DNA of 64,000 nucleotides from positions 58,134-122,133 of the forward strand of contig JAVEZS010000003.1 of assembly GCA_034002885.1 (NCBI GenBank). The letters are read 5' to 3'. Below are positions 45,357 through 60,556 of the stretch, piece after piece. The notes under the pieces are model-generated. The model did not search any database, had not been told where the DNA came from, and saw only the letters and a program-made list of their open reading frames with translations. Numbering within the stretch: position 1 is the first letter of the stretch; each line of letters begins with the position of its first letter. The DNA comes from Bacteroidales bacterium. Its GTDB lineage: Bacteria; Bacteroidota; Bacteroidia; Bacteroidales; VadinHA17. Made by a program: the position numbers and the translations under genes.

Positions 45357-45389
45357 CAGATATGTTGGTTCAGATTAATTATGCGATTT

Positions 45390-46841
45390 TTACTTTGTTT
45401 TGCGTGTTTTGGTTGTGGCAGAAGTTTTTGATTTTTTTGCTGTTTTAGTTTTAGATGAACTTAACAGAAGCATATTCCCTGCCAGGGATGGTTGTTTTGT
45501 AAGGGTTCCCTTTCCAGCTTTCTTTGTCCTGCTATTTTTCCTCAGCGAGTCCAGCTCACCTGTAAGCTGATCGATGAGAGACTCCTTTTCCTTCAGCAGG
45601 TTATTTAGTTTCGAAACTTCATTTACCTCATGGCTGTCGGGGACAAAGCGTTTAAGTCTTATTTCAAAGTCGCTGAGGACGTTCATATAGTTCATGAAAG
45701 CGTCATAGGGTGTGTCGTACGGGTTGAAATAGGCATGAACGGCTCCGTCCGAGAAGAATTTCGTTGCCATGTAGTAGAAATGGTCGCTTGCCTGCAGGTA
45801 TTCCCAATCTTTCTTGATCTGGGCATCGTCGCATATTCTTACCTTTTCGGAAAGGCTGTAGAGTTTGTCGAGTGCTGCTGACTGCAGTTCATTGCCGCAC
45901 CAGGCTGTAATATCTCTTTCCTCGTCGGCCCAGGAGATGGGTGAGGGTATGTTTATCGCGGAAACAGGCTGGAGGTAATCAGCTACTTCAGCAGGTGTCA
46001 TGAACTTGTAGGGTGTCTTTTTAAGGATGGCACCCGGCATATGAGTCAGAAAGTCAAATATTCCTGTTTCCTTTCTGTTATGTTCACCGAAAGTCTCATA
46101 ATCCAGAAACACGTTGATAAGTTCGCTTTTGGATGTCAGTTTATTTATCCAGGATGCATACTTATCGGCAGTAAGTGGCCATTCGCTCCAGTTGGTGTTG
46201 GAGAATCTGAAAGCAATGTCGTCGCTCAGAACGAAATTCCGGAGCAACACCTTAAGCCGGGGGTTTATGGAATTGCAATAGAGGTAATTGGGGCTTTTCC
46301 ATCCCAGAACATGTTTTGCTCCTTCCGTAAGGATTGCTTTAAAGCCCATATCGGCCACCCACGAACCTATCTGATCAGAATAGATAAGTTCTGTGTTTCT
46401 GAACGATGTGGGTTCCACTCCGAGGTGATCGTGGATCATTGCCTTATGCACCTCAACCTGGCGTTCAAACTCTGTACGTGATCTTACCGAGGCGAGGGAA
46501 TGGGATTCCGTTTCAGCAAGAAACTCAACCATACCGGTTTCCGCGAGTTTCCTGAACGACTCGAGCACTTCGGGGGCATAAAGCCTGAACTGTTTTATTA
46601 CAAGTCCTGTAAGGGAGAAAGTAACTTTGAACTTCCCCTTGTTCTTTATAATCTGATCCAGAAGGATCTCGTTGGCGGGGAGGTAGCATTTCTCTGCCAC
46701 CTTTCGCATTATTGACTCATTGGTGAAGTCATCATAGTAATAATGGTCGTGGCCGAGATCGAAAAACCTGTATCTTTTTAGCCTGAAAGGCTGATGAACC
46801 TGAAAATAAAAGCAAATAGCTTTTTTACCTGTTAGACTCAT
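45390..46841 (-). CDS. Glycoside hydrolase family 57 protein (alpha-amylase/branching-enzyme family) with basic C-terminal tail
   Basis: 483 aa. The N-terminal block ICFYFQVHQPFRLKRY is the GH57 HQP region, and FLDYETFGEH is also present. The last ~45 aa are Lys/Thr/Ser-rich (SSSKTKTAKKSKTSATTKTRKTK). Confidence 0.75.
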   Translation of the reverse strand: MSLTGKKAICFYFQVHQPFRLKRYRFFDLGHDHYYYDDFTNESIMRKVAEKCYLPANEILLDQIIKNKGKFKVTFSLTGLVIKQFRLYAPEVLESFRKLAETGMVEFLAETESHSLASVRSRTEFERQVEVHKAMIHDHLGVEPTSFRNTELIYSDQIGSWVADMGFKAILTEGAKHVLGWKSPNYLYCNSINPRLKVLLRNFVLSDDIAFRFSNTNWSEWPLTADKYASWINKLTSKSELINVFLDYETFGEHNRKETGIFDFLTHMPGAILKKTPYKFMTPAEVADYLQPVSAINIPSPISWADEERDITAWCGNELQSAALDKLYSLSEKVRICDDAQIKKDWEYLQASDHFYYMATKFFSDGAVHAYFNPYDTPYDAFMNYMNVLSDFEIRLKRFVPDSHEVNEVSKLNNLLKEKESLIDQLTGELDSLRKNSRTKKAGKGTLTKQPSLAGNMLLLSSSKTKTAKKSKTSATTKTRKTK

Positions 46842-46843
46842 AT

Positions 46844-48142
46844 TTAGTTTTTATTTTGCCAAATCACTCTGTAATAAATATCTCTCACGTGTCGTGCTGA
46901 ATTATCCCATTTCAGTCTTACAACCTCTTCTTTCCCGTTTTTGATGAACATTTTTGACAGGGCAGGATAATTCAGTATAGCGTAAATGGCATCGGCCATG
47001 GCATCGATGTCCCAGAAATCGGTTTTGACAGCGTGTGTAAGTATTTCCGAAACGCCTGATTGCTTGCTTATTATAACGGGAACGTTTGATTGCATTGCTT
47101 CGAGGGGGGAGATACCGAATGGTTCCGATACTGATGGCATAATATACACATCGCTAATGCTAAGCATATTGAACACATCCTTTCCCTTCAGAAAGCCAGT
47201 AAAGTGAAAGCGGTCGGTAATATTGAGCGCTGCTGCCCTTCGCATCATTCTTTCCATCATGTCGCCCGAACCGGCCATAACAAATCTTACATTGGGCATC
47301 ATTTTAAGGACTTTGTTTGCTGCTTCGATGAAGTATTCAGGGCCTTTCTGCATTGTTATTCTTCCGAGGAAGGTAACCACCTTGTCGTCGAAACCCTTGT
47401 TGACATCGGCATCGCCTGAGAGTTTTACGGGTTCTACTGCGTTATATACTGTCTCAACCTTATCGGGATCGATGTTGTATTTATTAATTACGATATCGCG
47501 GGTAAGGTTACTTACCGTTATTATTTTTGAAGCGGCATCCATGCCCATTTTCTCTATCCGGTAAACGTCGGGGTTCACATTACCCCCGCTGCGGTCGAAA
47601 TCGGTAGCGTGGACATGTATAACAAGAGGTTTTCCCGAAACTTCCATTGCAGCTATCCCTGCAGGATAGGCGAGCCAGTCGTGAGCGTGAATAATATCAA
47701 AATCGTTTTCCTGGGCAATTACGGCAGCCACCACGGAATACTTGTATATCTCGTCCATGAGGGATGTATCGTATCTTCCTGAGAAATCGATTGTTCCCTC
47801 ATTGTTTGTCTGTACCACCAGTTTATAGCCGGATGTTTCTGAATTGATCTTCTGATAGTACTGTTCCGGGTCAGTATAAGGAACAATTTTCGAGGATATT
47901 TCAATCTGCTCGATAGGTCGTTTAAAGCCTTTATAGTGTACCTGTTTGAATGCCACGGGCACTTTGTTGGCCCCGATGAGCCGCACCTTTGTCTGGTCTT
48001 CGTCTCCCCATTCTTTGGGAACAACGAAAATGACTTCAAGGTCTTCGAGTGTTGACATCCCTTTGGTAAGACCGAAACTGGCCGTACCCAGTCCGCCGGA
48101 GATATGTGGCGGGAACTCCCAACCGAACATTAGTACACGCAT
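46844..48142 (-). CDS. Glycosyltransferase family 4 (glycogen-synthase-like, retaining GT-B)
   Basis: 432 aa. N-terminus MRVLMFGWEFPPHISGGLGTA, and a C-terminal E-x7-E-type block (PSVSEPFGISPLEAM). Confidence 0.8.
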   Translation of the reverse strand: MRVLMFGWEFPPHISGGLGTASFGLTKGMSTLEDLEVIFVVPKEWGDEDQTKVRLIGANKVPVAFKQVHYKGFKRPIEQIEISSKIVPYTDPEQYYQKINSETSGYKLVVQTNNEGTIDFSGRYDTSLMDEIYKYSVVAAVIAQENDFDIIHAHDWLAYPAGIAAMEVSGKPLVIHVHATDFDRSGGNVNPDVYRIEKMGMDAASKIITVSNLTRDIVINKYNIDPDKVETVYNAVEPVKLSGDADVNKGFDDKVVTFLGRITMQKGPEYFIEAANKVLKMMPNVRFVMAGSGDMMERMMRRAAALNITDRFHFTGFLKGKDVFNMLSISDVYIMPSVSEPFGISPLEAMQSNVPVIISKQSGVSEILTHAVKTDFWDIDAMADAIYAILNYPALSKMFIKNGKEEVVRLKWDNSARHVRDIYYRVIWQNKN

Positions 48143-48154
48143 AGCGCAACCGGT

Positions 48155-50110
48155 TTAGATATTAGAAAATTTTGTATCAAGAATATCGATAATCCTCAGT
48201 ACTTCACCCACACTCCATGCCTGCGAAATAGTTCCGTTAGGGGCATGCGGCGGGTCTCCGTCGTAAATCTCTGATATTGTGCTCACCCCGTGTTCACTCA
48301 TCACCTCCTCCAGTCCGTAGATAAGTCTTTTTACCTTCTGCACGCCCTGCTGCCCGTATACTTTGAGCCACCCTTCGCAGAAAGGACCGTAAAGCCATGG
48401 CCAAACTGTTCCGTTATGATAGGCGTTATCCCTCTCTTCCTGGCTACCACCGTAGGTTCCCTTGTAGAGCGGGTGTCCGGGTGAGAGAGTCCTTAAACCC
48501 CGTGGTGTTACAAGCTCCTTGTCAGCAATTTCAAGGACACGCTGCATTTGTTCCTTTGAAAGCATGGAGTAAGGCAAAGAAACTGCGATGAGCATATTGG
48601 GTCTGACAAAATAGTTTTTTCCCTCCTCGTCATTTACATAGTCGGCAAGATAGCCTTTCTGGTGGTCGCAGAAGAGCTCGTGGAAAGAGCTGTTAATAAG
48701 TTCAGGGAGATCCTCATATTCTTTAATGAATTTCCTGTCTTTTACCTGTGCAGCCATGTCGAGAGCGAAGCATACGGCGTTGTACCATAGTGCGTTTATC
48801 TCGACAGCATATCCCTTTCTCTGGGTAACGGGAATCCCGTTTACAACAGCGTCCATCCAGGTAAGGGATTTTCCGGGTGCTGCGGCGTAGATAAGTCCGT
48901 TCTCCCTCATTCCAATGTTGAAGGATGTTCCCTTCCTAAAGGCGTCAAGCACCGACTTCATCGACTCCCCGTATCTTATCCAGGCATCTGTCCCGCCGTT
49001 GGCGAGATAATTCTGCACGGCCCAGAAGAACCACAAAGGTGCGTCGATAGAGTTGAAGGCAGGATTGTCCTCTGTTCCCATGTTGGGGAAAAGTCCGTTC
49101 TTCATTTTCGCCACCTGAGTGTCGAGCACTTCCCTGTAGAGTTTCAGTTTCCTGCTCGGGCGTGCCAGGGCAAGCCCAGGAAGGGCAATGAAGGTATCCC
49201 TTCCCCAGGAGCCGAACCACGGATATCCTGCTATAATCAAAGTTTTGCCATCCCTTTTTTCAATAAACTGCTGTGAAGCATTTTTGAGGCAGTTTATAAA
49301 CGAATTCCTTGGTATTTTACCGTTAACCGTTTTTGTGAACTTGGTTTTAAAACCGGATGGTTTCTCCTCTTTTGTTGAAGCTGAGAATACTATCTGATCG
49401 CCCTCTTTTGCTTCCACTTCAAAGAAACCCGGAGTAAAAAGATCCTCCGAATAATCATATCCTCTTTTCTGTTCCTCAGGATATTCCACTCCGAGGTACC
49501 AGTCGGGTACATGAACGAATTCGGCCTTTGTGCTGAACTGCATGTGAAGCGGTGGGAATCCTTCATATAGTTGTGAAATGATCCCGTTCTCAATAAAATC
49601 GACCTTGGTATTAGCTGCCAGGTTAGCATGCGTAAGTTCATGGATGTTCCTGAAAGCAAGATAGGGGCGTATCTGGAGTTTCATCGGTTCGGAAGCCTCA
49701 AGGATTGTAAAGCGGGCAAGGTACTGTTCCTCGTAGTGAACCAGAAGTCTTTCATGCTTTAGCTTTACTCCCCCAACCCTGTAGATCCTCGAAGGAATTG
49801 ACTCCATTTCGAGTTCTTCAATGTACTTGTGTCCTTTCGGACTGAAATAGTCGCCTTTGTACTTTCTGATACCGACATTGAAGCTCCTGTCGTTGTTGAC
49901 AACTGTTACATCAAGAGAAGAAAGCAGGACGTGCCTTTCGCCACCGAAAGCGTCGACCGGACATATCAGAAGTCCATGGTATTTTCTTGTATTGCATCCA
50001 ACGATTGTGGTGCAGGAGTATGAACCTGCCCTGTTCGTCCTTAACACTTCCCTTTTTAAGGAATACTCCAGATTTACTATCTGTCCCTTTTCAAACTTTA
50101 TGTAACTCAT
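48155..50110 (-). CDS. Glycogen debranching enzyme, amylo-alpha-1,6-glucosidase family (GH133-like)
   Basis: 651 aa. The N-terminal GDE_N-type block is TNRAGSYSCTTIVGCNTRKYHGLL. The C-terminal (alpha/alpha)6 block contains GYPWFGSWGRDTFIAL and HNGTVWPWL. Confidence 0.8.
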   Translation of the reverse strand: MSYIKFEKGQIVNLEYSLKREVLRTNRAGSYSCTTIVGCNTRKYHGLLICPVDAFGGERHVLLSSLDVTVVNNDRSFNVGIRKYKGDYFSPKGHKYIEELEMESIPSRIYRVGGVKLKHERLLVHYEEQYLARFTILEASEPMKLQIRPYLAFRNIHELTHANLAANTKVDFIENGIISQLYEGFPPLHMQFSTKAEFVHVPDWYLGVEYPEEQKRGYDYSEDLFTPGFFEVEAKEGDQIVFSASTKEEKPSGFKTKFTKTVNGKIPRNSFINCLKNASQQFIEKRDGKTLIIAGYPWFGSWGRDTFIALPGLALARPSRKLKLYREVLDTQVAKMKNGLFPNMGTEDNPAFNSIDAPLWFFWAVQNYLANGGTDAWIRYGESMKSVLDAFRKGTSFNIGMRENGLIYAAAPGKSLTWMDAVVNGIPVTQRKGYAVEINALWYNAVCFALDMAAQVKDRKFIKEYEDLPELINSSFHELFCDHQKGYLADYVNDEEGKNYFVRPNMLIAVSLPYSMLSKEQMQRVLEIADKELVTPRGLRTLSPGHPLYKGTYGGSQEERDNAYHNGTVWPWLYGPFCEGWLKVYGQQGVQKVKRLIYGLEEVMSEHGVSTISEIYDGDPPHAPNGTISQAWSVGEVLRIIDILDTKFSNI

Positions 50111-50298: not shown

Positions 50299-50339
50299 CA
50301 TCTCGATAATTGACTTATTTAAAAAGTATTTTTGTTTCA

Positions 50340-51503
50340 ATGATCAGAAAACTAATAATATGCCTGATTTGTTCAGTGCTGTTGTCAGCCTGCGGTAAAA
50401 AGAAAGTGGAAATAACCGGTATTCTTGAACAGCCACGACCCGGAGTGTTTCTGTTTCTACAGGAACTTTCGGACAATGATCTTACAACTGTCGACTCGCT
50501 GTTGATCCCTGAGGACGGCAGTTTTGAGTTCAGAACGAAGGTTAAATCCCCGTCTTTCTATCTGCTCAAAATTAATCAAAATAACTTTCTGACAATGCTT
50601 ATTGAGCCGGGAGAGAAAATAAAATTGACTTCTCACTTTGATTCGCTCAATTATCCTTTACTTGTGACCGGTTCTGAGGGGACGGAAATATTGTCGCGGT
50701 ACAACAGGGTTGTACTGGGTACTATTCATAAGCTGAGGCATATCAGTGAGACTCACGACAGAAATCTCGGCCGGCCTGATTTTGCATCTCTTGTCGACTC
50801 TCTGGAAAATGCCGGCAACGACCATCTTTCAGAACTTAACAGCTTCACAAAGAGATATATCGACGACAATATCAACTCACTTGCCACAATTGTAATACTG
50901 AATTCCCAGATCTCGCCGGGAACAGGAATTATAAACCCGGAGTATGATCTTGATTATTTCTCCAGAGTTGATTCGTCACTTTTTAGTAAATATCCTGAAA
51001 ACGGACTTGTCATTTCCCTGCATAACCTGGTAAAGGATATGAAAGCGGTACATGATAACAAGCGTCTCAGTTCACTGGAAGGCGAAGCTGGTGCTATTGC
51101 CCCCGACATTGCACTGCCAACACCCGAAGGCGACACCATTCGTCTCTCCTCCACGCGGGGGAAATATGTCCTTCTCGATTTCTGGGCAGCGTGGTGTCCA
51201 CCGTGCCGGAGAGAAAATCCCGGCCTGGTAAGGGCTTACAATGCATATCACGACAGGGGTTTTGAGATCTATCAGGTCTCGCTCGACAAGACCAGGGAAG
51301 CCTGGGTAAAGGGCATAGCCGACGACCGCCTTGAAAAATGGATCCATGTCAGCGACATTAAATACTGGAATTCGGTTGTTGTTCCTCTCTACGGCATTGA
51401 ATCGATACCTGCCAGCTACCTGCTCGATCCGGAAGGCCGAATCATCGCAACCAACCTCAGGGGCGATGCCCTTCAGAGAAAGCTGGCCGAATTGTTTGAC
51501 TGA
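50340..51503 (+). CDS. TlpA/ResA-like thiol-disulfide oxidoreductase lipoprotein (DUF4369-like N-domain + thioredoxin fold)
   Basis: Track ORF trimmed to Met11 (MIRKLIICLICSVLLSAC lipobox). The intact WCPPC active site lies at 51192-51206. Confidence 0.75.
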   Translation: MIRKLIICLICSVLLSACGKKKVEITGILEQPRPGVFLFLQELSDNDLTTVDSLLIPEDGSFEFRTKVKSPSFYLLKINQNNFLTMLIEPGEKIKLTSHFDSLNYPLLVTGSEGTEILSRYNRVVLGTIHKLRHISETHDRNLGRPDFASLVDSLENAGNDHLSELNSFTKRYIDDNINSLATIVILNSQISPGTGIINPEYDLDYFSRVDSSLFSKYPENGLVISLHNLVKDMKAVHDNKRLSSLEGEAGAIAPDIALPTPEGDTIRLSSTRGKYVLLDFWAAWCPPCRRENPGLVRAYNAYHDRGFEIYQVSLDKTREAWVKGIADDRLEKWIHVSDIKYWNSVVVPLYGIESIPASYLLDPEGRIIATNLRGDALQRKLAELFD

Positions 51504-51546: not shown

Positions 51547-52707
51547 ATGAAAAAATCAATAATTCTTCTGCTTCCCCTGATAATAATAGCCGGATGCCGG
51601 AATACAGAATCGTTTACAATAAAAGGCGTTATTGACAATGCTGACAACAAGACTCTTTATCTGCGAAAGGTTGATGTCAACACTCTTGTTATGATTGATT
51701 CGTCGAAAACAGGCAGTGGCGGAGAATTCAGATTCAAAGTAAAGGCAACGGCTCCTGATTTTTACCAGCTCGGGTATTCCGAGACTTCTTTTCTCACTCT
51801 TCTGGCTGAACCTGGTGAAAAAATCGGGATGAAGATTAACGGAGCCAATCTTTCAGGCGACTACACCATTACGGGATCGGAAGGTTCAGAAAAGGTAAGG
51901 ATGCTTGATCTCAGGCTGGCAAGGACAAAAAGCAGGCTTGATTCTCTGCGAACACTGTATGAAGCAGCTTCTGCAGAGCCGGATTTCGAAGAGAAAGGAG
52001 CTCTTCTTGAACAGGAATTCAACAACACTGTATCCGACATACGAAAAAAAACTATCGAGTTCATTATAGGCAACACTACCTCCCTTGCATCACTGAAGGC
52101 CCTGTACCAGAGAATAGATGATAATGCCTATGTACTTTATGATCCCCGCGACCTCCAGTACATGAAGATAGTTTCCGATTCGCTGGGCAAGTATTATCCC
52201 AGGTCAAGGAATGTTATTGCCCTTTCTGAAGATGTGAAAAGGGAGATGGGCGAATTCAATACAAGGCAGCTTCAGAATATGGCTAATAATTCCCCGGAGA
52301 TAAGGCTCGATCCGGAGCTTACCGACATAAACGGGAAAAGGATCGCCCTTTCTTCACTCAGGGGCAAGGTTGTTCTCCTTACCTTCTGGAGTGTCGATTC
52401 GCCTGAGTGCATAGCCGAGAACCTTCAACTGAAAGAGTTCTATAAAACTTACAACAGGAAAGGCTTCGAGATTTACCAGATAAATCTTGACGAGGATGAG
52501 GAAAAATGGAAAAGACAGGTCAGATTTGACGAGCTGCCGTGGATAAGCACAAGGGAAGACGATCCTTCCAATCCGAAAAATGCAATCCTCTATAACGTAA
52601 AGGCCTTGCCTGCCAGTTATCTCTATGGCAGGGATGGCACCATCATCGGAACTGATCTTCACGGAAGGTCGCTTCAGATCAAACTCAATCAGCTCTTTAA
52701 CAATTAA
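51547..52707 (+). CDS. TlpA-like thioredoxin-fold lipoprotein paralog with degenerate active site (SPEC instead of CxxC)
   Basis: 386 aa with lipobox IIAGC. It has the same two-domain layout as the upstream gene. The active-site position reads FWSVDSPEC (52399-52410), so the first Cys is lost. Confidence 0.7.
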   Translation: MKKSIILLLPLIIIAGCRNTESFTIKGVIDNADNKTLYLRKVDVNTLVMIDSSKTGSGGEFRFKVKATAPDFYQLGYSETSFLTLLAEPGEKIGMKINGANLSGDYTITGSEGSEKVRMLDLRLARTKSRLDSLRTLYEAASAEPDFEEKGALLEQEFNNTVSDIRKKTIEFIIGNTTSLASLKALYQRIDDNAYVLYDPRDLQYMKIVSDSLGKYYPRSRNVIALSEDVKREMGEFNTRQLQNMANNSPEIRLDPELTDINGKRIALSSLRGKVVLLTFWSVDSPECIAENLQLKEFYKTYNRKGFEIYQINLDEDEEKWKRQVRFDELPWISTREDDPSNPKNAILYNVKALPASYLYGRDGTIIGTDLHGRSLQIKLNQLFNN

Positions 52708-52713
52708 GCTTCT

Positions 52714-53460
52714 GTGGTGAAGGAAAAAGGTAAAATATTTTTTGCATCCGACTTTCATCTGGGTTTAAAGGCCGGGAGTGATCCGGCTGAAAGGGAAAGA
52801 AAGGCTGTGCAATGGCTGAATACCGTTGCTCCGGAAGCAAGGGCTATTTTTCTTCTGGGAGATATCTTCGACTTCTGGTGGGAGTATAAGCTTGTTGTCC
52901 CCAGAGGTTTTACAAGATTCCTGGGGACGGTATCATCAATCACCGATTCAGGAATACCTGTCCATTTCTTCACGGGGAACCACGATATGTGGATCACCGA
53001 TTATCTTCCGGGGGAGTGTGGGATCATAGTCCATTCTGCTCCGGAGACCTTCGACTTTGACGGCAGAAAATTTCATCTCGCACATGGTGAAGGTCTCGGA
53101 TCGGAGAGCAGGCTTTACAGGACATTGCTGGCAATCTTCAGGAACAGACCCCTCAGGTTTCTTTACTCAATTATTCATCCGCGCATCGGTATTGCAATTG
53201 GTCATGCATGGTCGCTGAATTCAAGACTGGGTAAAGGGGAAAAGCTGGAATTTCTTGGTGAGGAGAAGGAAGACCTTATAAGGTATTCAAAAGAAGTAAT
53301 GAACGAAAGCAAGATCGATTTCTTCATTTACGGCCACCGTCATCTGGCCATGAAATACGCTCTCAACGGAGGTTCGGAAATATTGTTCCTCGGAGACTGG
53401 ATAAGCAGGGGAAGCTACGCCGTGTGGGATGGAAGCTTACTTGATCTTATGGAATTCTGA
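52714..53460 (+). CDS. lpxH: UDP-2,3-diacylglucosamine diphosphatase (LpxH-type metallophosphoesterase)
   Basis: 248 aa with a GTG start. Calcineurin-like motifs are SDFHLG, GDIFDFWWEY, GNHDMW and GHRH. Confidence 0.7.
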   Translation: MVKEKGKIFFASDFHLGLKAGSDPAERERKAVQWLNTVAPEARAIFLLGDIFDFWWEYKLVVPRGFTRFLGTVSSITDSGIPVHFFTGNHDMWITDYLPGECGIIVHSAPETFDFDGRKFHLAHGEGLGSESRLYRTLLAIFRNRPLRFLYSIIHPRIGIAIGHAWSLNSRLGKGEKLEFLGEEKEDLIRYSKEVMNESKIDFFIYGHRHLAMKYALNGGSEILFLGDWISRGSYAVWDGSLLDLMEF

Positions 53461-53464
53461 GGGG

Positions 53465-54580
53465 TCAGCCCTCTTCCTTGTCGACCCTTACGGTCATGGT
53501 AAAATACGTGTACAGCTCATTCACCAGCCGGAAATCGTACTGAAGCCTGCTTCCCGATTTCAGGGCAATATTTATAAGTCCCATGTTACCTGTGCTGTCA
53601 TTTTCTATACTCTGTCGCGACAGTGATGAGTAGAAGAGTTTTTTAAGGTCCTCCCTTACTGAATTGTTGACAGAATCGAGGATACTTTTTAGGACCCCGA
53701 CGTTATTGTTATTCATAAGGTTACCAGTCGTAAGTATCACCGCGCCCTCATCGATCCTGACAATGGCAGCCGGCATCCCGTATTCCTTCTCAGCTTCGCG
53801 CCCGGGATTGTATTTTGACATGTTCTCAAGGGTCTCTACCATAATGTTGAAAACCCTTCGCCTGAACCTGCTTCCCATATCTTCTTCAGTAAGCCTCGAT
53901 TCGGTTATGGAGAGGACTTCCTCCCCTATACCCGGTGTAAGGTGACCCGACCAGATCATGTAGATCCTGTTTTCGGCCATTACATTTTCGAGGTCCATTA
54001 CAGAAGCCGTGTTGAAAACTGTTTCCCTGTTACCGTTATAGATTCCTGTTCCCGTTGAATCAACAGTTTTACCGATAACAAAATAGGAATAATCATTTTC
54101 AACCGGTTCAAAACCATATTCAAGCTTATTACCTGTTTTAGCGGCCATCTCTATAAGCCCCAGGCCGGCCCCTCCCTTTTCACTGAATTCCGAGGTTCTG
54201 AGGATCTGCTTGTACAGAGCCTTAATCCCTTCTGCATCAAGACTTGTAACCTTTCTAAGCTTTCTGTCGAGCGAATCAACCTGGGCTGCTGCAATCAGGT
54301 TTCCTGTCACTATCCTGTAACCGTCATCGGTTTTGGAATAGGTAACCAGCGACATGTGACCATCTTTTTTATGTTCACCGTGTTTTACGATGTTCTGGAG
54401 ATTTTCAAGGACATACATGAACAGACGTTTTCTTCCGGTAAAACTGAAGGCGTCCTCCTTCATTTCATTCTCAAGAAGGGTAAGCAACGACAGTGAGTTT
54501 TTGTCGTTAACATCACCCCTGAATGCAAACAGTAGCCCTCTCTGAGCTACTTTGTCCTGAACCCTCTTAATTATATCCAT
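53465..54580 (-). CDS. Tandem-duplicated SiaB/RsbW-like (GHKL ATPase-type) protein, second copy degenerate
   Basis: 371 aa. Residues ~15-173 and ~205-366 align with a constant offset of 193. Repeat 1 has an N-box E59-x3-N63-x3-H67 and a glycine lid GGAGLGL (136-142). Repeat 2 has E249-x3-N253-x3-Y257 and STGNMGL (329-335). Confidence 0.4.
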   Translation of the reverse strand: MDIIKRVQDKVAQRGLLFAFRGDVNDKNSLSLLTLLENEMKEDAFSFTGRKRLFMYVLENLQNIVKHGEHKKDGHMSLVTYSKTDDGYRIVTGNLIAAAQVDSLDRKLRKVTSLDAEGIKALYKQILRTSEFSEKGGAGLGLIEMAAKTGNKLEYGFEPVENDYSYFVIGKTVDSTGTGIYNGNRETVFNTASVMDLENVMAENRIYMIWSGHLTPGIGEEVLSITESRLTEEDMGSRFRRRVFNIMVETLENMSKYNPGREAEKEYGMPAAIVRIDEGAVILTTGNLMNNNNVGVLKSILDSVNNSVREDLKKLFYSSLSRQSIENDSTGNMGLINIALKSGSRLQYDFRLVNELYTYFTMTVRVDKEEG

Positions 54581-54683
54581 GCAATAAAACCAGAAAAATG
54601 GTATGCCTTTGTAATCATTGCTAAATAAACGTCATACTTTTTAGTTTATTGCCTACATTAGAATGCCGTAAATCAGATTTGCA

Positions 54684-54695
54684 ATTGTATACAAT
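54684..54695. promoter_or_regulatory. Perfect 12-bp palindrome ATTGTATACAAT upstream of the glycyl-radical operon (candidate operator)
   Basis: It sits 28 nt upstream of the activase ATG (54723), in the 142-bp divergent intergenic region. Confidence 0.3.
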
Positions 54696-54722
54696 GATCA
54701 TTATTTTCAGCTTTTTAAAGGT

Positions 54723-55619
54723 ATGCTGACAGTTTTTAACATACAGAGATATTCTCTTCACGACGGGAAGGGAGTAAGGACAAATATTTTTTTCAAGGGA
54801 TGTCCCCTTCACTGCCAGTGGTGCAATAATCCGGAGAGCATTGACCCTTTCCCCTCCCTGATGTTCGATGAAAGGGCCTGTCATTCCTTCGGGGACTGCA
54901 TTTCCTCCGGCGAAGGATACATCTACGTAAGCGATGGGAAACTCCTTATCGACAGGGATAATATTGTCAGTTATGAAAAGCTAAGGGATATCTGCCCGTC
55001 GAAGGCTCTTGTTATAGCAGGAAAGGCCATGAGCACAGAGGAGATAATGGCAGAAATTGAAAAGGATATTCCCTTTTACGAAATGAGTGGCGGAGGAGTC
55101 ACGATTACCGGAGGCGAGCCCTTTGCACAGGACCCGGAACTTAAGGGCCTTCTCAGGCTGATCAGGGAAAGGGGTATTCATATTTCTGCTGAGACATCAC
55201 TGAATATACCATGGGAGGTTATTGAAAGCTACACGGAGCTGGTTGACGTGTTCCTTGCTGATCTTAAACATACCGATCCTGTAAAACTCTCCGCCTTCAC
55301 AGGAGGAGATGCTGAGCTCGTGTCAGCGAACTTCAGGAAGCTCGACGCAATGGGTTGCTGTATAGTGGTGAGGGTTCCTGTAATTCCTGATTTTAATTTC
55401 TCGGTAACGGAGATGCAGGGAATAATAGATTTTGCTTCGGGACTGGCGAATGTATCGGAAATAAATTTCATCCCCTTTCACTCACTCGCAAGGGAGAAGT
55501 ACCTTATGCTGGACAAGCCATATATTTTCGAGAATCAAAAAGATATTGACAAAAAAGATCTCCTGCCTTTTGTTCAGTATGCTGAACAAAAAGGACTGAA
55601 AGCCAAAATACTTAACTGA
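54723..55619 (+). CDS. Glycyl-radical enzyme activating protein (radical SAM)
   Basis: 298 aa. The radical-SAM cluster motif is C27-x3-C31-x2-C34 (GCPLHCQWC). GGGVTITGGEP is the SAM-binding motif. The ferredoxin-like insert (res 40-100) keeps only 3 Cys. Confidence 0.9.
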   Translation: MLTVFNIQRYSLHDGKGVRTNIFFKGCPLHCQWCNNPESIDPFPSLMFDERACHSFGDCISSGEGYIYVSDGKLLIDRDNIVSYEKLRDICPSKALVIAGKAMSTEEIMAEIEKDIPFYEMSGGGVTITGGEPFAQDPELKGLLRLIRERGIHISAETSLNIPWEVIESYTELVDVFLADLKHTDPVKLSAFTGGDAELVSANFRKLDAMGCCIVVRVPVIPDFNFSVTEMQGIIDFASGLANVSEINFIPFHSLAREKYLMLDKPYIFENQKDIDKKDLLPFVQYAEQKGLKAKILN

Positions 55620-55620
55620 C

Positions 55621-58035
55621 ATGACATACGATACAGCAACCATTCCCCTGACGCAGCGGATAGCCCGGATGAGGGAAAAGATCATTTCAGCAAAATCAAC
55701 GGTTTGCACCGAAAGGGCAAAATTTTATACTGAAGCTTACCGCGAAAATGAAGAATTGCCTGTAATCCTGAGACGAGCCCTGGCCCTTGAGAAGACGCTC
55801 AGCAGCATGACGGTTTTCATTGATGAAGGAGAACTCATTGTCGGGAATCAGTCGTCAGCCGTTCGGGCTGCACCTATATTCCCTGAGTATGTGACATCAT
55901 GGATCTTAAAGGAGCTGGATGAATTCGACAAGCGTCCGGGAGATGCATTTTATGTTACCGAAAATCAGAAAAGCGAGTTAAGGGAGCTGTGCAGGTACTG
56001 GGAAGGAAAGACGCTTATCGAAAGAGGACATTCCATTATGTCGCCGCTCAACAGGGATATTCATGATTCGGGGATAATCAGGGCCGAGGGCAATCTGACA
56101 TCCGGAGATGCGCATATTGCCGTTAACCTGGAAAAGATCCTGAGGATAGGCCTGACGGGCTTCCTTAAAGAAACAGACATTGCCAGAAAGGCTATCGATC
56201 AGGGGGATCCCGAACGTGAAAAAAAGCTCAGTTTTTACAAAGCCCTTGAAATATCTCTTTCAGCTTTCATAAATTTCATTCAAAGATTCGAGTCGCTTGC
56301 CGGCGGGCTCGCCGCCGGAGAAACCGATCTGGAAAGAAAAAATGAACTTATCGTCATCGCGAAAAACTGCAGGAACATTGCCGCCGGACCACCAGCGGGA
56401 TTTTATGAAGCGCTCCAGCTTACATGGTTCGTTCAGCTTATACTGCAGATCGAGAGCAACGGACACTCAGTCTCTCTGGGCAGACTGGATCAGTACCTGT
56501 ACCCATTTTACAAAAAGGACCGTGAGGCAGGTCTTATAAGTGATGAATTCGTCCTCGAGCTTCTGGAGAACACCTGGCTTAAACTGCTTTCGGTAAATAA
56601 GATAAGGTCGTGGTCACATACCAGGTACTCGGCCGGGGGTCCTCTATACCAGAATGTCACAATCGGTGGTCAGACCGTTTCGGGGCAGGATGCCGTGAAC
56701 CCTCTGAGTTTTCTTATCCTCGGTTCAGTAGGCCGCATGAAACTCACACAGCCAAACCTCTCTGTAAGGTATCATAAGAACATCGACCACCGCTTCCTTG
56801 AGGAATGCATCAACGTTATTGGAAAGGGCTTCGGCATGCCCGCCTTCAACAATGACGAGATTGTGATACCCTCGCTTATTGAACTTGGGGTAAGCAGGGA
56901 AGATGCATATAATTACTCTGCAATAGGCTGCATTGAGATTGCTGTTCCGGGGAAATGGGGATACAGATGTACGGGAATGAGTTTTCTGAATTTCATGAGG
57001 GTTTTTCTTGCAGCCATGAACGACGGACTTGACACTATGTCGGGCCTTAAGTTCTTTGACGGAACGGGCAGCTTCAGCGAATTCAGCACCTTTGACGACC
57101 TGATGAAGGCCTGGAAGCATCAGGTCAGCTTATATACACGGGCTTCCATAGAGATCGACACCGCTGTCGACCATGCACTTGAGGAGCTGGTACCCGACAT
57201 TCTGTGTTCAGCCTTCGTTGACGACTGCATAGAAAGAGGAAAGACCATCAAGGAGGGGGGCTCGGTTTACGATTTTATCTCGGGCCTTCAGGTAGGAATT
57301 GCCAACCTTGGGAATTCGCTCGCGGCAATAAAAAAGCTCGTTTTCGAGGAAAAACTTATTGACAGGGAGCTTCTGGAAAAGAATCTGAGGAACAACTTTG
57401 AAGGCAAGGAGGGCGAGAGGATAAGACAGATCCTGCTAAACTACGCTCCCAAGTACGGGAATGATGATGATTATGTTGACAAGCTCCTGGTTGAAGCATA
57501 TAACTGTTATATAGAGGAACTTCCGGCCTATAGAACTACGCGTTTCGGAAGAGGTCCCGTCGGTTGTGCTTATTATGCCGGAACTTCAAGCATCTCTTCG
57601 AATGTACCCTCGGGTGCTGTCGTTCCTGCAACACCCGACGGGAGAAAAGCCTTTACTCCGCTTGCCGAAGGATGTTCTCCGACGTCGGGCACCGATATCA
57701 TGGGTCCCACGGCGGTTTTCAAGTCGGTATCAAAACTTCCCACCGGCAAAATAACAGGAGGGGTTCTTCTGAACCAGAAACTTTCTCCCTCGGCACTGTC
57801 GAACGAAACCCAGAGGGAGAAGCTTATCTCCATACTCCAAACTTTCTTCGCAACCCTTAAAGGATGGCATGTGCAGTATAACATTGTCTCGCGCGAGACC
57901 CTTCTGGCAGCAAAAAAGAACCCTGAGAACTACAGGGATCTTGTTGTAAGAGTTGCAGGTTATTCGGCTTTTTTCACAACACTGTCGCCCGACACCCAGG
58001 ACGACATCATTGCACGCACTGAACAGACATTATAG
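55621..58035 (+). CDS. Glycyl radical enzyme, PFL2/dehydratase (1,2-eliminase) class, YbiW/PflD-like
   Basis: 804 aa. The glycyl radical motif RVAGYS puts Gly780 at codon 57958-60. The thiyl loop AIGCIE gives Cys437 and Glu439 (56929-56937), which is not the PFL Cys-Cys pair. Blocks LQIESNGHSVS, GFGMPAFNNDE, SGLQVGIANLGNSLAA and YRDLVVRVAGYSAFF are as I recall them for E. coli YbiW/PflD. Confidence 0.85.
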   Translation: MTYDTATIPLTQRIARMREKIISAKSTVCTERAKFYTEAYRENEELPVILRRALALEKTLSSMTVFIDEGELIVGNQSSAVRAAPIFPEYVTSWILKELDEFDKRPGDAFYVTENQKSELRELCRYWEGKTLIERGHSIMSPLNRDIHDSGIIRAEGNLTSGDAHIAVNLEKILRIGLTGFLKETDIARKAIDQGDPEREKKLSFYKALEISLSAFINFIQRFESLAGGLAAGETDLERKNELIVIAKNCRNIAAGPPAGFYEALQLTWFVQLILQIESNGHSVSLGRLDQYLYPFYKKDREAGLISDEFVLELLENTWLKLLSVNKIRSWSHTRYSAGGPLYQNVTIGGQTVSGQDAVNPLSFLILGSVGRMKLTQPNLSVRYHKNIDHRFLEECINVIGKGFGMPAFNNDEIVIPSLIELGVSREDAYNYSAIGCIEIAVPGKWGYRCTGMSFLNFMRVFLAAMNDGLDTMSGLKFFDGTGSFSEFSTFDDLMKAWKHQVSLYTRASIEIDTAVDHALEELVPDILCSAFVDDCIERGKTIKEGGSVYDFISGLQVGIANLGNSLAAIKKLVFEEKLIDRELLEKNLRNNFEGKEGERIRQILLNYAPKYGNDDDYVDKLLVEAYNCYIEELPAYRTTRFGRGPVGCAYYAGTSSISSNVPSGAVVPATPDGRKAFTPLAEGCSPTSGTDIMGPTAVFKSVSKLPTGKITGGVLLNQKLSPSALSNETQREKLISILQTFFATLKGWHVQYNIVSRETLLAAKKNPENYRDLVVRVAGYSAFFTTLSPDTQDDIIARTEQTL

Positions 58036-58043
58036 AAAAGACT

Positions 58044-59006
58044 ATGGATAAAATCCTTTGCGGTGTCGATCTCGGAGGCACCAAGTTATCGGCCGGTCTG
58101 GTTTACCCCGATGGGAGAATCCTTGACAAGACTGTTGTATATGATCATTCCGGAAGAAGCGAGACAGAGATTGTTAATTATATAACAGAGCTCATAAAGC
58201 AGATCCTCCGGAAGAATGGTCTCGCCGAGAATGACCTTGAAGGGATAGGAATAGGCTTTCCCGGGCATGTACGGTATCGCGACGGTTATACAATTACGAC
58301 GTCGAACCTCAGGGGCTTCAAGAATTTCCCTCTCCGCGATTCCGTTGCCGCCGGGTTTGGGGTTCCGGTAAGGCTCGACAACGATGCCAATGCCCAGGCT
58401 TACTGTGAGTACAGGTTCGGGGCGGGCCGGGGTTACGATGATCTCATCTTCCTTACAATCAGTACGGGTATTGGTGCCGGCATAATACTTAACGGCCGTG
58501 TATACCGTGGACATACGGGAACTGCCGGTGAATTCGGGCACACAATTGTGGATCTCAACAGCGAGTTTACATGTACGTGCGGCAACAGGGGCTGCCTGAT
58601 GGGTATTGCCTGCGGCTTATCCCTGCCCCACCGCTTCAGGAAAAAAATAGAGGAAGGGGTTGGGACCAAGTTGCCCCTGGAGGCTGGTTTTGACTATTCA
58701 AAGGTGAATGGAAAGCTTATCCGGGAGGGGCTGAAGATTGATGATCCGGTGTCGAAGTCGATTGTACGTGAGTGTGCCGACTATATCGGCATAGGCATTT
58801 ACAATATCTTTCAGGTATTCAATCCTCCGGTGATTATACTCGGAGGCGGGCTTATGAATCTTGGTGACTACTATTTTGACAGGATCAGGAGTAAGTTCTA
58901 TGAGCTTGCGAGGGATATGATCTTTGATCCTATTGCGATAGTGAAGTCGGAAGCGGAGGCTGATGCTGGTCTTATAGGTGCCGCGGCCCTTCTTCTTGAA
59001 GAATGA
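58044..59006 (+). CDS. ROK family sugar kinase (no DNA-binding domain)
   Basis: 320 aa. It starts directly with the ATP motif GVDLGGTKL. The ROK zinc motif is GEFGH...CTCGNRGCLMG. There is no N-terminal HTH. Confidence 0.8.
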   Translation: MDKILCGVDLGGTKLSAGLVYPDGRILDKTVVYDHSGRSETEIVNYITELIKQILRKNGLAENDLEGIGIGFPGHVRYRDGYTITTSNLRGFKNFPLRDSVAAGFGVPVRLDNDANAQAYCEYRFGAGRGYDDLIFLTISTGIGAGIILNGRVYRGHTGTAGEFGHTIVDLNSEFTCTCGNRGCLMGIACGLSLPHRFRKKIEEGVGTKLPLEAGFDYSKVNGKLIREGLKIDDPVSKSIVRECADYIGIGIYNIFQVFNPPVIILGGGLMNLGDYYFDRIRSKFYELARDMIFDPIAIVKSEAEADAGLIGAAALLLEE

Positions 59007-59017
59007 TCACTTATGGC

Positions 59018-60556
59018 CTATCCGGCCCATCCTTCCCTGTCGAGGTTCCTGTAGTTTATTGCTTCGGAGATGTGTTCAGCCATTATATTATCAGACTCAT
59101 CGAGATCTGCGATCGTTCTCGCCACCTTCAGGATCCTGTCGTAAGCCCTTGCAGACAGTCCCCGGAGTTCCATTGCCGTCCTAAGAAGTTTTCCTCCGGT
59201 TTCGTCGAGCTGGCAGTACCTTCTCTGCATCGAGGCTGTCATCTGCGAATTTGAGTAGACGCCTTTTACATGAGCGAATCTATTTGCCTGGATATTCCTC
59301 GCCTTTATTATCCTTTCCCTGACGTTCTCTGATCTGTCGGCTTTTGCCTGATCTGCAAGCTTCTCATATTTTACGGGGACAACCTCTATATGGATATCGA
59401 TTCTGTCGAGCAGGGGGCCTGAGATACGGTTAAGATATTTCTGAACCATTCCGGGGGAGCACACGCAATCCTTGTCGGGGTGGTTATGAAATCCGCAGGG
59501 GCATGGGTTCATGGATGCTATCAGCATGAAACTTGCCGGGTAGTCGCATGTCGATTTTGCCCTGGATATCGTTATGATCCTGTCTTCGAGGGGTTGGCGC
59601 ATCACCTCGAGTACGCTTCTTTTGAATTCGGGCAGTTCGTCGAGGAAAAGGACTCCGTTATGGGCAAGTGATATCTCGCCCGGCTGAGGGAAAGTTCCTC
59701 CGCCAACAAGGGCGACATCAGAAATGGTATGATGGGGTGAGCGGAATGGTCTGCGGGTCATAAGTGCGGTATGATCATCTATCTTGCCGGCTACAGAATG
59801 TATCTTTGTCGTCTCGAGTGCCTCTTCGAGGGTAAGAGGCGGCATTATTGTCGCGAGGCGTTTCGCGAGCATTGTCTTACCCGAACCGGGCGGGCCTATC
59901 ATCAGCAGATTATGGTGTCCGGCCGCCGCCACTTCGAGAGCCCGTTTGACATTTTCCTGACCTTTGACGTCGGAGAAATCGACATCGTATCTGTTTGCCT
60001 CTCCGTTAAAAATTTCGTTGAGATCGATCCTTACCGGTTCAAATTTCCTTGTGCGGTTGAACAAATCGATTACGTCGGCCAGTTTTTCAAGGCCGAAGAC
60101 CTCAAGACCGTTAACCACTGCAGCTTCCCTCGCGTTCTTTGAAGGAAGTATTACGCCCTTGAATCCTTCCTCCCTGGCCCTGAGGGCTATAGGGAGCACT
60201 CCCCTCACCGGCTGAAGGGTGCCGTCGAGAGACAATTCTCCCATTAAGACAAACGATTCGAGGTCCTTTCCCGATATTTTCCCGTCGGCTGCGAGGATTC
60301 CTGCAGCAAGGGGAAGGTCGTATGCTGAGCCCTCCTTGCGGATGTCGGCCGGGGCCATGTTAACGACAACCTGGCGGCCGGGCCAGTGGTACCCGAGGGT
60401 TCGTATTGCAGATTCTATCCTTTGCTGGCTCTCCTTTACAGCGACATCAGGAAGACCCACAAGAAAAAAACGTATCCCCTGCGAAACGTTTACTTCAATA
60501 GTGACAGTGACGGCATCAATACCGGCAACAGCACTGGCAAATGTCCTTACCAACAT
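59018..60556 (-). CDS. comM: YifB/ComM family Mg-chelatase-like AAA+ ATPase
   Basis: 512 aa. Lon-protease-like N-domain, Walker A GPPGSGKTMLA, and DELPEF Walker B. Confidence 0.9.
   Translation of the reverse strand: MLVRTFASAVAGIDAVTVTIEVNVSQGIRFFLVGLPDVAVKESQQRIESAIRTLGYHWPGRQVVVNMAPADIRKEGSAYDLPLAAGILAADGKISGKDLESFVLMGELSLDGTLQPVRGVLPIALRAREEGFKGVILPSKNAREAAVVNGLEVFGLEKLADVIDLFNRTRKFEPVRIDLNEIFNGEANRYDVDFSDVKGQENVKRALEVAAAGHHNLLMIGPPGSGKTMLAKRLATIMPPLTLEEALETTKIHSVAGKIDDHTALMTRRPFRSPHHTISDVALVGGGTFPQPGEISLAHNGVLFLDELPEFKRSVLEVMRQPLEDRIITISRAKSTCDYPASFMLIASMNPCPCGFHNHPDKDCVCSPGMVQKYLNRISGPLLDRIDIHIEVVPVKYEKLADQAKADRSENVRERIIKARNIQANRFAHVKGVYSNSQMTASMQRRYCQLDETGGKLLRTAMELRGLSARAYDRILKVARTIADLDESDNIMAEHISEAINYRNLDREGWAG

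Follow-up and report, generated by a model that had tools for sequence, protein, structure and literature searches.

We analysed a 64-kb stretch of DNA, referred to below as the window, from a Bacteroidales bacterium (contig JAVEZS010000003.1), in which three genes encode, in this order, a radical-SAM activase, a glycyl radical enzyme (GRE) and a sugar kinase of the ROK family (Table 1). A sequence-only reading of this DNA had described three co-directional genes packed into an operon, and the open reading frames agree with that description, the activase and GRE genes being 1 nt apart and the GRE and ROK genes 8 nt apart, all on the + strand. The genes are real, their family matches being very strong, and do not reflect a chance pattern. 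The activase matched the GRE activase family TIGR02494 (298 bits; cut-off 174) as well as Pfam Radical_SAM and Fer4_12, it carries the cluster motif CxxxCxxC as C27-P-L-H-C31-Q-W-C34, and its identity to E. coli YbiY is 43%; a radical-SAM activase with this motif encoded nearby is one of the marks of a PFL-like GRE, and here it lies immediately upstream of the GRE gene. Because the gaps are so short and internal signals were not detected, the activase, GRE and ROK genes are predicted to form a single transcription unit. The neighbours of this unit are a divergent SiaB-like/DUF6272 gene on the upstream side and a convergent yifB-like gene on the downstream side. Scans of the operon region for sigma-70 promoters and terminators gave nothing exceeding shuffled sequence, and an Rfam scan of window positions 53000-60000 gave no match.

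In E. coli, 1,5-anhydro-D-glucitol (AG) is phosphorylated during its uptake by the phosphotransferase system (PTS) (PMC12441222). The GRE YbiW breaks the C-O bond in the ring of 1,5-anhydroglucitol-6-phosphate (AG6P), PflD acts likewise on the mannitol epimer, and the product of both enzymes, 1-deoxyfructose-6-phosphate, is split by Fsa aldolases (PMC13450708, PMC12441222). This published chemistry agrees with the sequence-only reading, which had noted that YbiW and PflD ring-open 1,5-anhydrohexitol-6-phosphates and that their genes lie next to fsa or PTS genes; in E. coli K-12, ybiW-ybiY indeed stand beside fsaA, and pflD-pflC stand among frwCBD, ptsA, fsaB and gldA. The E. coli pathway, in which YbiW/YbiY act with FsaA, was reportedly described under the name 'anhydroglycolysis' by Ma et al. 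in JACS in 2024.

The window GRE matched the Pfam families PFL-like (PF02901, 679.5 bits) and Gly_radical (PF01228, 110.5 bits) and the NCBIfam family TIGR01774 (1008 bits). It has, within the Gly_radical domain, the RVxG[FWY] motif that defines PFL-like members, and also the Cys-x-Glu loop of the YbiW type; both had been read from the letters alone, as RVAGYS with Gly780 and as G-C437-I-E439, and both were located, at residues 777-782 and 436-439, respectively. In E. coli YbiW, C441 is the thiyl radical Cys and E443 the general-base Glu (PMC13450708). When the GRE was compared with the proteins in the PDB, the highest scores were those of entry 6xs4 (1007 bits) and E. coli YbiW (8id7 and 8yjn, 993 bits), followed by glycerol dehydratase (615 bits), diol dehydratase (578 bits), PflD (506 bits), CutC (430-488 bits), HplG (447 bits), HypD (436 bits) and IslA (394 bits). 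None of the NCBIfam equivalogs for other functions attained its cut-off with the window GRE, and the match to NF007437 (PflD) stayed below the equivalog cut-off of 1109, the PflD scores being 506-596 bits. With E. coli YbiW the GRE shares 58% of its residues and with PflD 38-39%, and the identity of YbiW itself to the fsa/gldA-linked streptococcal homologues (51%) is not above its identity to the window enzyme.

To place the enzyme among its relatives, we used a sample of 80 loci with GRE relatives found by scanning a single genome from each species, in which the nearest relatives come from metagenome-assembled genomes (MAGs) of uncultured Bacteroidales. A neighbour-joining tree separated the YbiW clade clearly from PflD-like sequences and divided it into three branches, namely, a gammaproteobacterial branch with E. 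coli YbiW, a branch of Firmicutes, Actinobacteria and Treponema, and a branch of Bacteroidota and some Spirochaetota that includes the window GRE and lies between the gammaproteobacterial and the fsa-linked Firmicutes branches. Thus, both the PDB scores and the tree put the full-length similarity to YbiW above that to any other characterised GRE, and the check suggested earlier against HypD, CutC and the dehydratases came out in favour of YbiW, also in the NCBIfam comparison. As a proxy for the substrate pocket, we took the 252 columns of the alignment in which fsa-linked YbiW homologues are invariant to 97% or more, and, among them, the 63 in which none of the four PflD-clade sequences has that residue. 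The window GRE retains 240 of the 252 invariant positions and 59 of the 63 discriminating ones; its departures at invariant columns are conservative or fall at sites variable inside the clade, and the sole charged residue lost, R509 of YbiW, is itself at a site that varies across the clade. Judged by its sequence, the window GRE is therefore an orthologue of YbiW, and it is predicted to be an AG6P C-O lyase (isomerase) yielding 1-deoxyfructose-6-phosphate. The earlier label 'YbiW/PflD-like' stands in its first half and falls in its second.

The window operon resembles E. coli ybiW/ybiY in the Cys-x-Glu loop and glycyl motif of the GRE and in having the activase gene directly upstream of the GRE gene in the same order, and many members of both branches, though not the window operon itself, are accompanied by an orthologous DeoR regulator; it differs in that fsaA is divergently adjacent in E. 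coli, whereas the third gene of the window operon encodes a dedicated ROK kinase without PTS, fsa or gldA in 64 kb. With the 1,5-anhydromannitol-6-phosphate branch of E. coli (PflD/PflC-FrwCBD-PtsA-FsaB-GldA) the GRE shares the superfamily, the Cys-x-Glu loop and, as predicted, the kind of ring-opening chemistry on a 1,5-anhydrohexitol phosphate, but 59 YbiW-specific residues of the window GRE differ from all four PflD-clade sequences and the PflD locus, unlike the window operon, is PTS-linked. The B12-independent glycerol and propanediol dehydratases, which are GRE 1,2-eliminases and the next-best solved relatives, have the same type of thiyl loop and GRE architecture, but their scores are far under that of YbiW, microcompartment or diol-metabolism genes are not found nearby in the window, and the neighbour of the window GRE is a sugar kinase, joined in relatives by a DeoR sugar-phosphate regulator.

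The kinase matched Pfam ROK (PF00480) from residue 6 to residue 319 of its 320 (232 bits), and there is therefore no room for a helix-turn-helix (HTH) DNA-binding domain, as the sequence-only reading had stated. The protein has the features of the ROK family, that is, the ATP motif DxGxT (D9-L-G-G-T13), the catalytic N113-D114, E163-F-G-H166 and a Cys3His zinc site with C177, C179 and C184, and it has no N-terminal HTH. The family signature, GHx9-11CxCGx2G(C/H)xE, ends in a Glu that is among five sugar-binding residues (PMC2742894) and contacts the sugar 1'-OH (PMC3553997); in NagK, the 1'-OH is engaged by an Asp (PMC10031466). In the window kinase this terminal position is Met186 instead, and HMMER alignments set M186 opposite the Glu of the S. 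griseus, E. faecalis and T. thermophilus glucokinases and opposite E588 of the human N-acetylmannosamine (ManNAc) kinase. Moreover, the score with the glucokinase subfamily TIGR00744 was 212.8 bits, below the cut-off of 260.35. Because of this score and of the replacement of the 1'-OH Glu by Met, the ROK kinase is, on sequence criteria, no ordinary glucokinase, and this point, raised for checking by the earlier reading, was thereby answered. The window kinase shares the fold family, the ATP motif and the catalytic and zinc motifs with S. griseus GlkA (3VGK), the E. faecalis (2QM1) and T. thermophilus (3VOV) enzymes and the human GNE ManNAc kinase, but it differs from them in Met186, in its position under the TIGR00744 cut-off, and in being encoded by a gene tied to a GRE gene, with activase fusions in some organisms.

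Met ends the signature in all 18 zinc-type ROKs located within 2 kb of a GRE gene (that of the window and 17 in the 80 loci), including a Treponema/Merdimonas group merely 32-34% identical to the window kinase, and the sole Glu-type ROK in the 80 loci is 8.3 kb distant from the GRE. All 120 close homologues among the matches listed are of the Met type. Of the best 150 cluster representatives drawn from 1.8 billion proteins, Met is present in 21 and Glu in 117, and every top-scoring representative with a detectable motif is Met-type. Since Met186 has no hydrogen-bond acceptor for an anomeric hydroxyl, it would be expected for a sugar with a methylene C1, such as AG, and the window ROK is predicted to be an ATP-dependent 1,5-anhydro-D-glucitol 6-kinase of a GRE-linked subfamily. 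Among the distant relatives of the kinase there are also tandem ROK-ROK proteins of about 650-690 aa (P0246, P0251, P0254, P0255, P0261 and P0315), in which both halves are of the standard Glu type.

The linkage of kinase and GRE genes over the 80 loci was analysed with a panel BLAST. The order activase-GRE-ROK was found in 8 of 8 Bacteroidota loci of the clade (Draconibacterium, Mariniphaga, Roseivirgaceae, Rikenellaceae, Odoribacter and three Bacteroidales MAGs), in three Spirochaetota loci and in one unclassified locus. The ROKs of these 12 loci are 47-75% identical to that of the window, and their genes begin 0-34 nt after the GRE gene. Met-type ROKs within 150 nt of a GRE occur in 16 of the 80 loci, four of them of the Treponema type in addition to the 12 just mentioned, and one further case lies at 2 kb. 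The linkage also holds in reverse, since all six Met-type ROKs on informative contigs adjoin a PFL-like GRE, the contig of P0302 (Met-type, 397 aa) being too short to inform this test; ROK homologues 67-68% identical to the window kinase adjoin the GRE. In agreement with these data, two cluster representatives, P0257 and P0259, are ROK-activase fusions of 663-674 aa with an N-terminal Met-type ROK (GCLM or GCVM) and a C-terminal radical-SAM GRE activase (CPLRC.WC), and the gene for P0257 is directly 5' of that for an 803-aa GRE 50% identical to the window GRE. The distant ROK-linked GREs of loci L091 and L093 are 44-50% identical both to the window GRE and to YbiW. Beyond the activase, GRE, ROK and DeoR genes no conserved flanks were found in the Bacteroidota loci, where the neighbours are as unrelated as an acyltransferase, histidine kinases, MgtE, Nramp, haemolysin-III, UDP-glucose dehydrogenase and a DEAD helicase; the activase-GRE-ROK(-DeoR) module therefore moves as a unit. 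The sequence-only reading had proposed a variant for Bacteroidota in which a kinase takes the place of the PTS: the co-conservation of a specialised ROK, which it had wished to see checked across Bacteroidota, supports the proposal, but the linkage of a kinase is not peculiar to that phylum, being present in Spirochaetota and some Firmicutes too.

The neighbourhoods of the relatives also bear on how the phosphorylated substrate may be supplied. DeoR-family regulators typically sense sugar phosphates, and 8 of the 12 activase-GRE-ROK loci have a DeoR gene in fourth position, following ROK; orthologues of this regulator (37-51% identical) accompany YbiW-clade GREs in 52 of the 80 loci, in several phyla, and the gene is absent at the window operon and in its nearest relatives L014, L083 and L084. 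In streptococci and some others, a lactose/cellobiose-type PTS (IIA-IIB-IIC) lies beside GRE-fsa-gldA. The gammaproteobacterial loci contain fsa, activase, GRE and DeoR only, and these organisms presumably use general PTS systems for the supply of AG6P. Several Firmicutes have a zinc-less ROK beside the GRE, together with fsa in three of them (L037, L056 and L060), and Treponema-type loci show the order DeoR-ROK-GRE, with fsa also in L029; ROK, GRE and fsa are thus found together in these four loci. A search for hidden kinase or PTS genes after fsa or GRE in Firmicutes and Proteobacteria found none, the genes there being of the SBP_bac_5, MatE, PGI, JetA, Amt, AKR and EamA types. A transporter plus a kinase is a familiar alternative to the PTS, and ATP-binding cassette (ABC) sugar transporters of the CUT2 type stand beside Met-type ROKs in L008, L013, L017 and L028 (Spirochaetota and Merdimonas), an arrangement that supports the order import, phosphorylation and ring opening; no transporter linked to the module was found in the Bacteroidota loci. 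A second Met-type ROK, with a 59-aa N-terminal extension, occurs in L008 at 1.8 kb from the GRE, where it adjoins a LacI-type regulator and the CUT2 ABC transporter and is a candidate kinase or sensor.

Taking the enzymes and their linkage as a whole, we consider it likely that the operon is a PTS-independent, kinase-fed module made of an AG kinase and an AG6P lyase, which would supply a PTS-lacking Bacteroidales bacterium with an entry into the anhydroglycolysis known from E. coli; the specialised sugar kinase probably replaces the sugar-import phosphorylation of the E. coli pathway. Free AG would enter the cell through an importer encoded outside the window and would be phosphorylated by the ROK kinase at O6 with ATP, in a pocket that keeps Asp114, Asn113, Glu163 and His166 and in which Met186, in place of the Glu that bonds the anomeric 1'-OH, would suit a substrate with a bare methylene C1. 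The activase would then put a radical on Gly780 of the GRE. By the chemistry published for E. coli YbiW, which we take over here, the radical would pass from Gly780 to Cys437, Cys437 would take the hydrogen from C2 of AG6P and Glu439 would deprotonate the C2-OH, after which the C1-O5 ring bond would break and return of the hydrogen would give 1-deoxyfructose-6-phosphate. Finally, an aldolase encoded elsewhere may split this product into glyceraldehyde-3-phosphate and hydroxyacetone.

Several observations weigh against this proposal. Fsa, gldA and sugar transporter genes were not found in the 64-kb window. More specifically, tblastn found no homologues of the PTS proteins Frw and PtsA or of FsaA, FsaB and GldA in the whole window, and Pfam and NCBIfam found no PTS families among the neighbours, in line with the earlier statement that the operon has no PTS component, aldolase, transporter or regulator; the two marks of E. 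coli-type anhydroglycolysis, a PTS supplying the 6-phosphate and a linked Fsa/GldA, are thus both lacking at the window. Fsa was also absent within 7-10 kb of the module in all 12 clade loci, and it is adjacent in 1 of the 17 Met-ROK loci versus 47 of the 63 others (Fisher p ~3e-7, a value that ignores phylogeny and includes some incomplete contigs). Identity of 58% and the retained discriminating positions are no proof that the GRE shares the substrate of YbiW, and the Met signature is equally compatible with 1,5-anhydromannitol or another 1-deoxy sugar. Co-transcription is argued solely from the 1- and 8-nt gaps and the absence of internal signals.

As to the missing aldolase, 1-deoxyfructose-6-phosphate would either be cleaved by an unlinked Fsa/TalC-type enzyme or have another fate. 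We put forward, as a rather doubtful extension, that the 'GC-x-Met' ROKs constitute an unrecognised family of dedicated 1,5-anhydrohexitol kinases, some of them activase-fused, and that the Fsa-less module of Bacteroidota and Spirochaetota feeds 1-deoxyfructose-6-phosphate, or whatever a related anhydro-sugar phosphate yields, into a route other than the Fsa/GldA route of E. coli. Reductase genes follow the module in a few loci, namely, a short-chain dehydrogenase gene after the Met-type ROK in L089, an aldo-keto reductase gene after the ROK-linked GRE in L093 and an aldo-keto reductase/ferredoxin fusion after fsa in L058; these enzymes could reduce hydroxyacetone in place of GldA. In L083, whose GRE is 75% identical to that of the window, the ROK gene faces a convergent gene for a GFO/IDH/MocA oxidoreductase, which adjoins an IS200-type Y1 transposase gene; 1,5-anhydrofructose reductase is a known member of this oxidoreductase family.

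The scarcity of fsa, adjacent in 1 of 17 Met-ROK loci as opposed to 47 of 63 others, would also be explained if the same kinds of enzymes acted on another 1-deoxy or 1,5-anhydro hexitol, 1,5-anhydromannitol or 1,5-anhydrogalactitol for instance, or on a similar cyclic ether sugar, and the product followed a route without an Fsa aldolase. Met186 would report a missing 1'-OH and not the configuration at C2-C4, the window GRE differs at 4 of the 63 discriminating and 12 of the 252 invariant positions, and the 44-50% identity of the L091 and L093 enzymes makes substrate drift in the wider group plausible. Nevertheless, the differing positions are conservative or variable in the clade, the window GRE belongs within the YbiW clade, flanked in the tree by the gammaproteobacterial and the fsa-linked Firmicutes branches, a DeoR orthologue also occurs in fsa-linked loci, and a Met-type ROK is combined with fsa in L029, so that a different sugar appears to us unlikely.

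It is very improbable that the kinase is an ordinary glucokinase or hexokinase standing by chance beside the GRE gene, with AG6P arising from its side activity and the GRE serving mainly to remove a toxic analogue of glucose-6-phosphate. The nearest solved structures are indeed glucokinases (167 bits), JGI calls the homologues 'glucokinase', a glycogen gene cluster lies upstream, and mammalian glucose-phosphorylating enzymes make AG6P from AG by error (PMC6347702). However, the TIGR00744 score is under its cut-off, the zinc-type ROKs found up to 2 kb from a GRE all have Met, in two clades that are 32-34% identical, while Glu prevails in the best 150 representatives (117), the ROK gene travels with the GRE across phyla and unrelated contexts, ROK-activase fusions exist, and the glycogen synteny is confined to the lineage of the window. 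A reversed order, in which unphosphorylated AG would first be opened by the GRE and the resulting 1-deoxyfructose would be the substrate of the ROK kinase, would fit the existence of ROK fructokinases (1xc3 and 3ohr, both among the PDB matches of the window kinase), the lack of a 1-OH in a 1-deoxy ketose, likewise compatible with Met186, and the gene order GRE then kinase. It is nevertheless equally improbable: of the 252 invariant positions of homologues from PTS users, which receive the sugar phosphorylated, 240 are retained in the window GRE, the loss of charged residues is limited to R509 of YbiW, at a site that differs between clade members, DeoR regulators point to sugar phosphates, and Treponema-type loci have ROK before GRE.

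The polyol AG is plentiful in the diet and in blood and serves as a clinical marker. To our knowledge, the only anaerobic route for its breakdown is that described in 2024, in PTS-containing enteric bacteria. The enzyme chemistry and the pathway are thus already known from E. coli, and a kinase in place of the PTS is an expected sort of variation. What differs from E. coli is the supply step and its dedicated enzyme, with an uncharacterised ROK subfamily and its active-site substitution, the co-inheritance with the GRE in PTS-lacking phyla, the ROK-activase fusions and the absence of a linked aldolase; no description of a kinase-dependent variant was found in the searchable literature, although Ma et al. 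(2024) may themselves show such neighbourhoods. The GRE and specialised kinase in Bacteroidota and Spirochaetota, with ABC transporters in some lineages, would extend the pathway to PTS-lacking anaerobes, and Met in place of the 1'-OH-binding Glu offers a simple sequence marker to find such kinases. The ROK protein is, in addition, a candidate ATP-dependent AG kinase for the enzymatic production of AG6P, a compound whose toxicity affects neutrophils in two inherited diseases (PMC12441222).

Table 1. Features of the window and of homologous loci. Positions are those of the sequence named in the second column; L numbers denote loci with homologues.
Feature	Sequence	Position	Strand	Remark
Activase gene	window	54723-55619	+	298 aa
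GRE gene	window	55621-58035	+	804 aa
Cys loop G436-C437-I438-E439	window	56926-56937	+	counterpart of C441/E443 in E. coli YbiW
Glycyl radical motif R777-V-A-G780-Y-S782	window	57949-57966	+	Pfam Gly_radical
ROK kinase gene	window	58044-59006	+	320 aa
ROK zinc signature C177-T-C179-G-N-R-G-C184-L-M186	window	58572-58601	+	from the translation
Upstream intergenic region, presumed promoter region	window	54581-54722	+	common to operon and divergent DUF6272/SiaB-like gene
12-bp perfect palindrome ATTGTATACAAT	window	54684-54695		28 nt 5' of activase start codon
SiaB-like/DUF6272 gene	window	53465-54580	-	divergent from activase gene
DUF4369-thioredoxin paralogues	window	50310-51503 and 51547-52707		TlpA/ResA-like, in tandem
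Glycogen metabolism cluster	window	39106-50110		4.6 kb upstream of operon
DeoR genes of clade loci (others also present)	L001	7835-8581		
	L004	13387-14133		
	L005	13356-14099		
	L006	13321-14109		
	L010	13351-14097		
ROK-activase fusion P0257	L091	6001-8025		
ROK-activase fusion P0259	L092	3948-5972		
Second Met-type ROK	L008	7004-8146	-	380 aa
LacI-type regulator and CUT2 ABC transporter	L008	2398-6978	-	
Short-chain dehydrogenase	L089	1089-1838		
Aldo-keto reductase	L093	5124-6131		
Aldo-keto reductase/ferredoxin fusion	L058	13429-14733		
GFO/IDH/MocA oxidoreductase and IS200-type Y1 transposase	L083	10965-12161 and 12760-13233	-	

The palindrome in the presumed promoter region occurs a single time in the window and elsewhere only in contigs of the same species (L085-L088), no conservation being found beyond these. 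The divergent SiaB-like/DUF6272 gene is internally duplicated, with two matched stretches. Between it and the glycogen metabolism cluster lie the two thioredoxin paralogues, and the cluster itself comprises a branching-enzyme-like gene on the + strand and, all on the - strand, genes for a 1408-aa glycogen synthase/phosphorylase fusion, a GH57 protein, a GT4/GT5 glycosyltransferase and a debranching enzyme. The GDE/thioredoxin/DUF6272 synteny is retained in L014, L083, L084 and L085 and absent from the other Bacteroidota loci; a functional tie of the operon to the glycogen cluster as a general feature was therefore rejected, the synteny being restricted to the lineage of the window. Apart from the glycogen cluster and a GH97 glycosidase, the remaining annotated open reading frames of the window are housekeeping genes.

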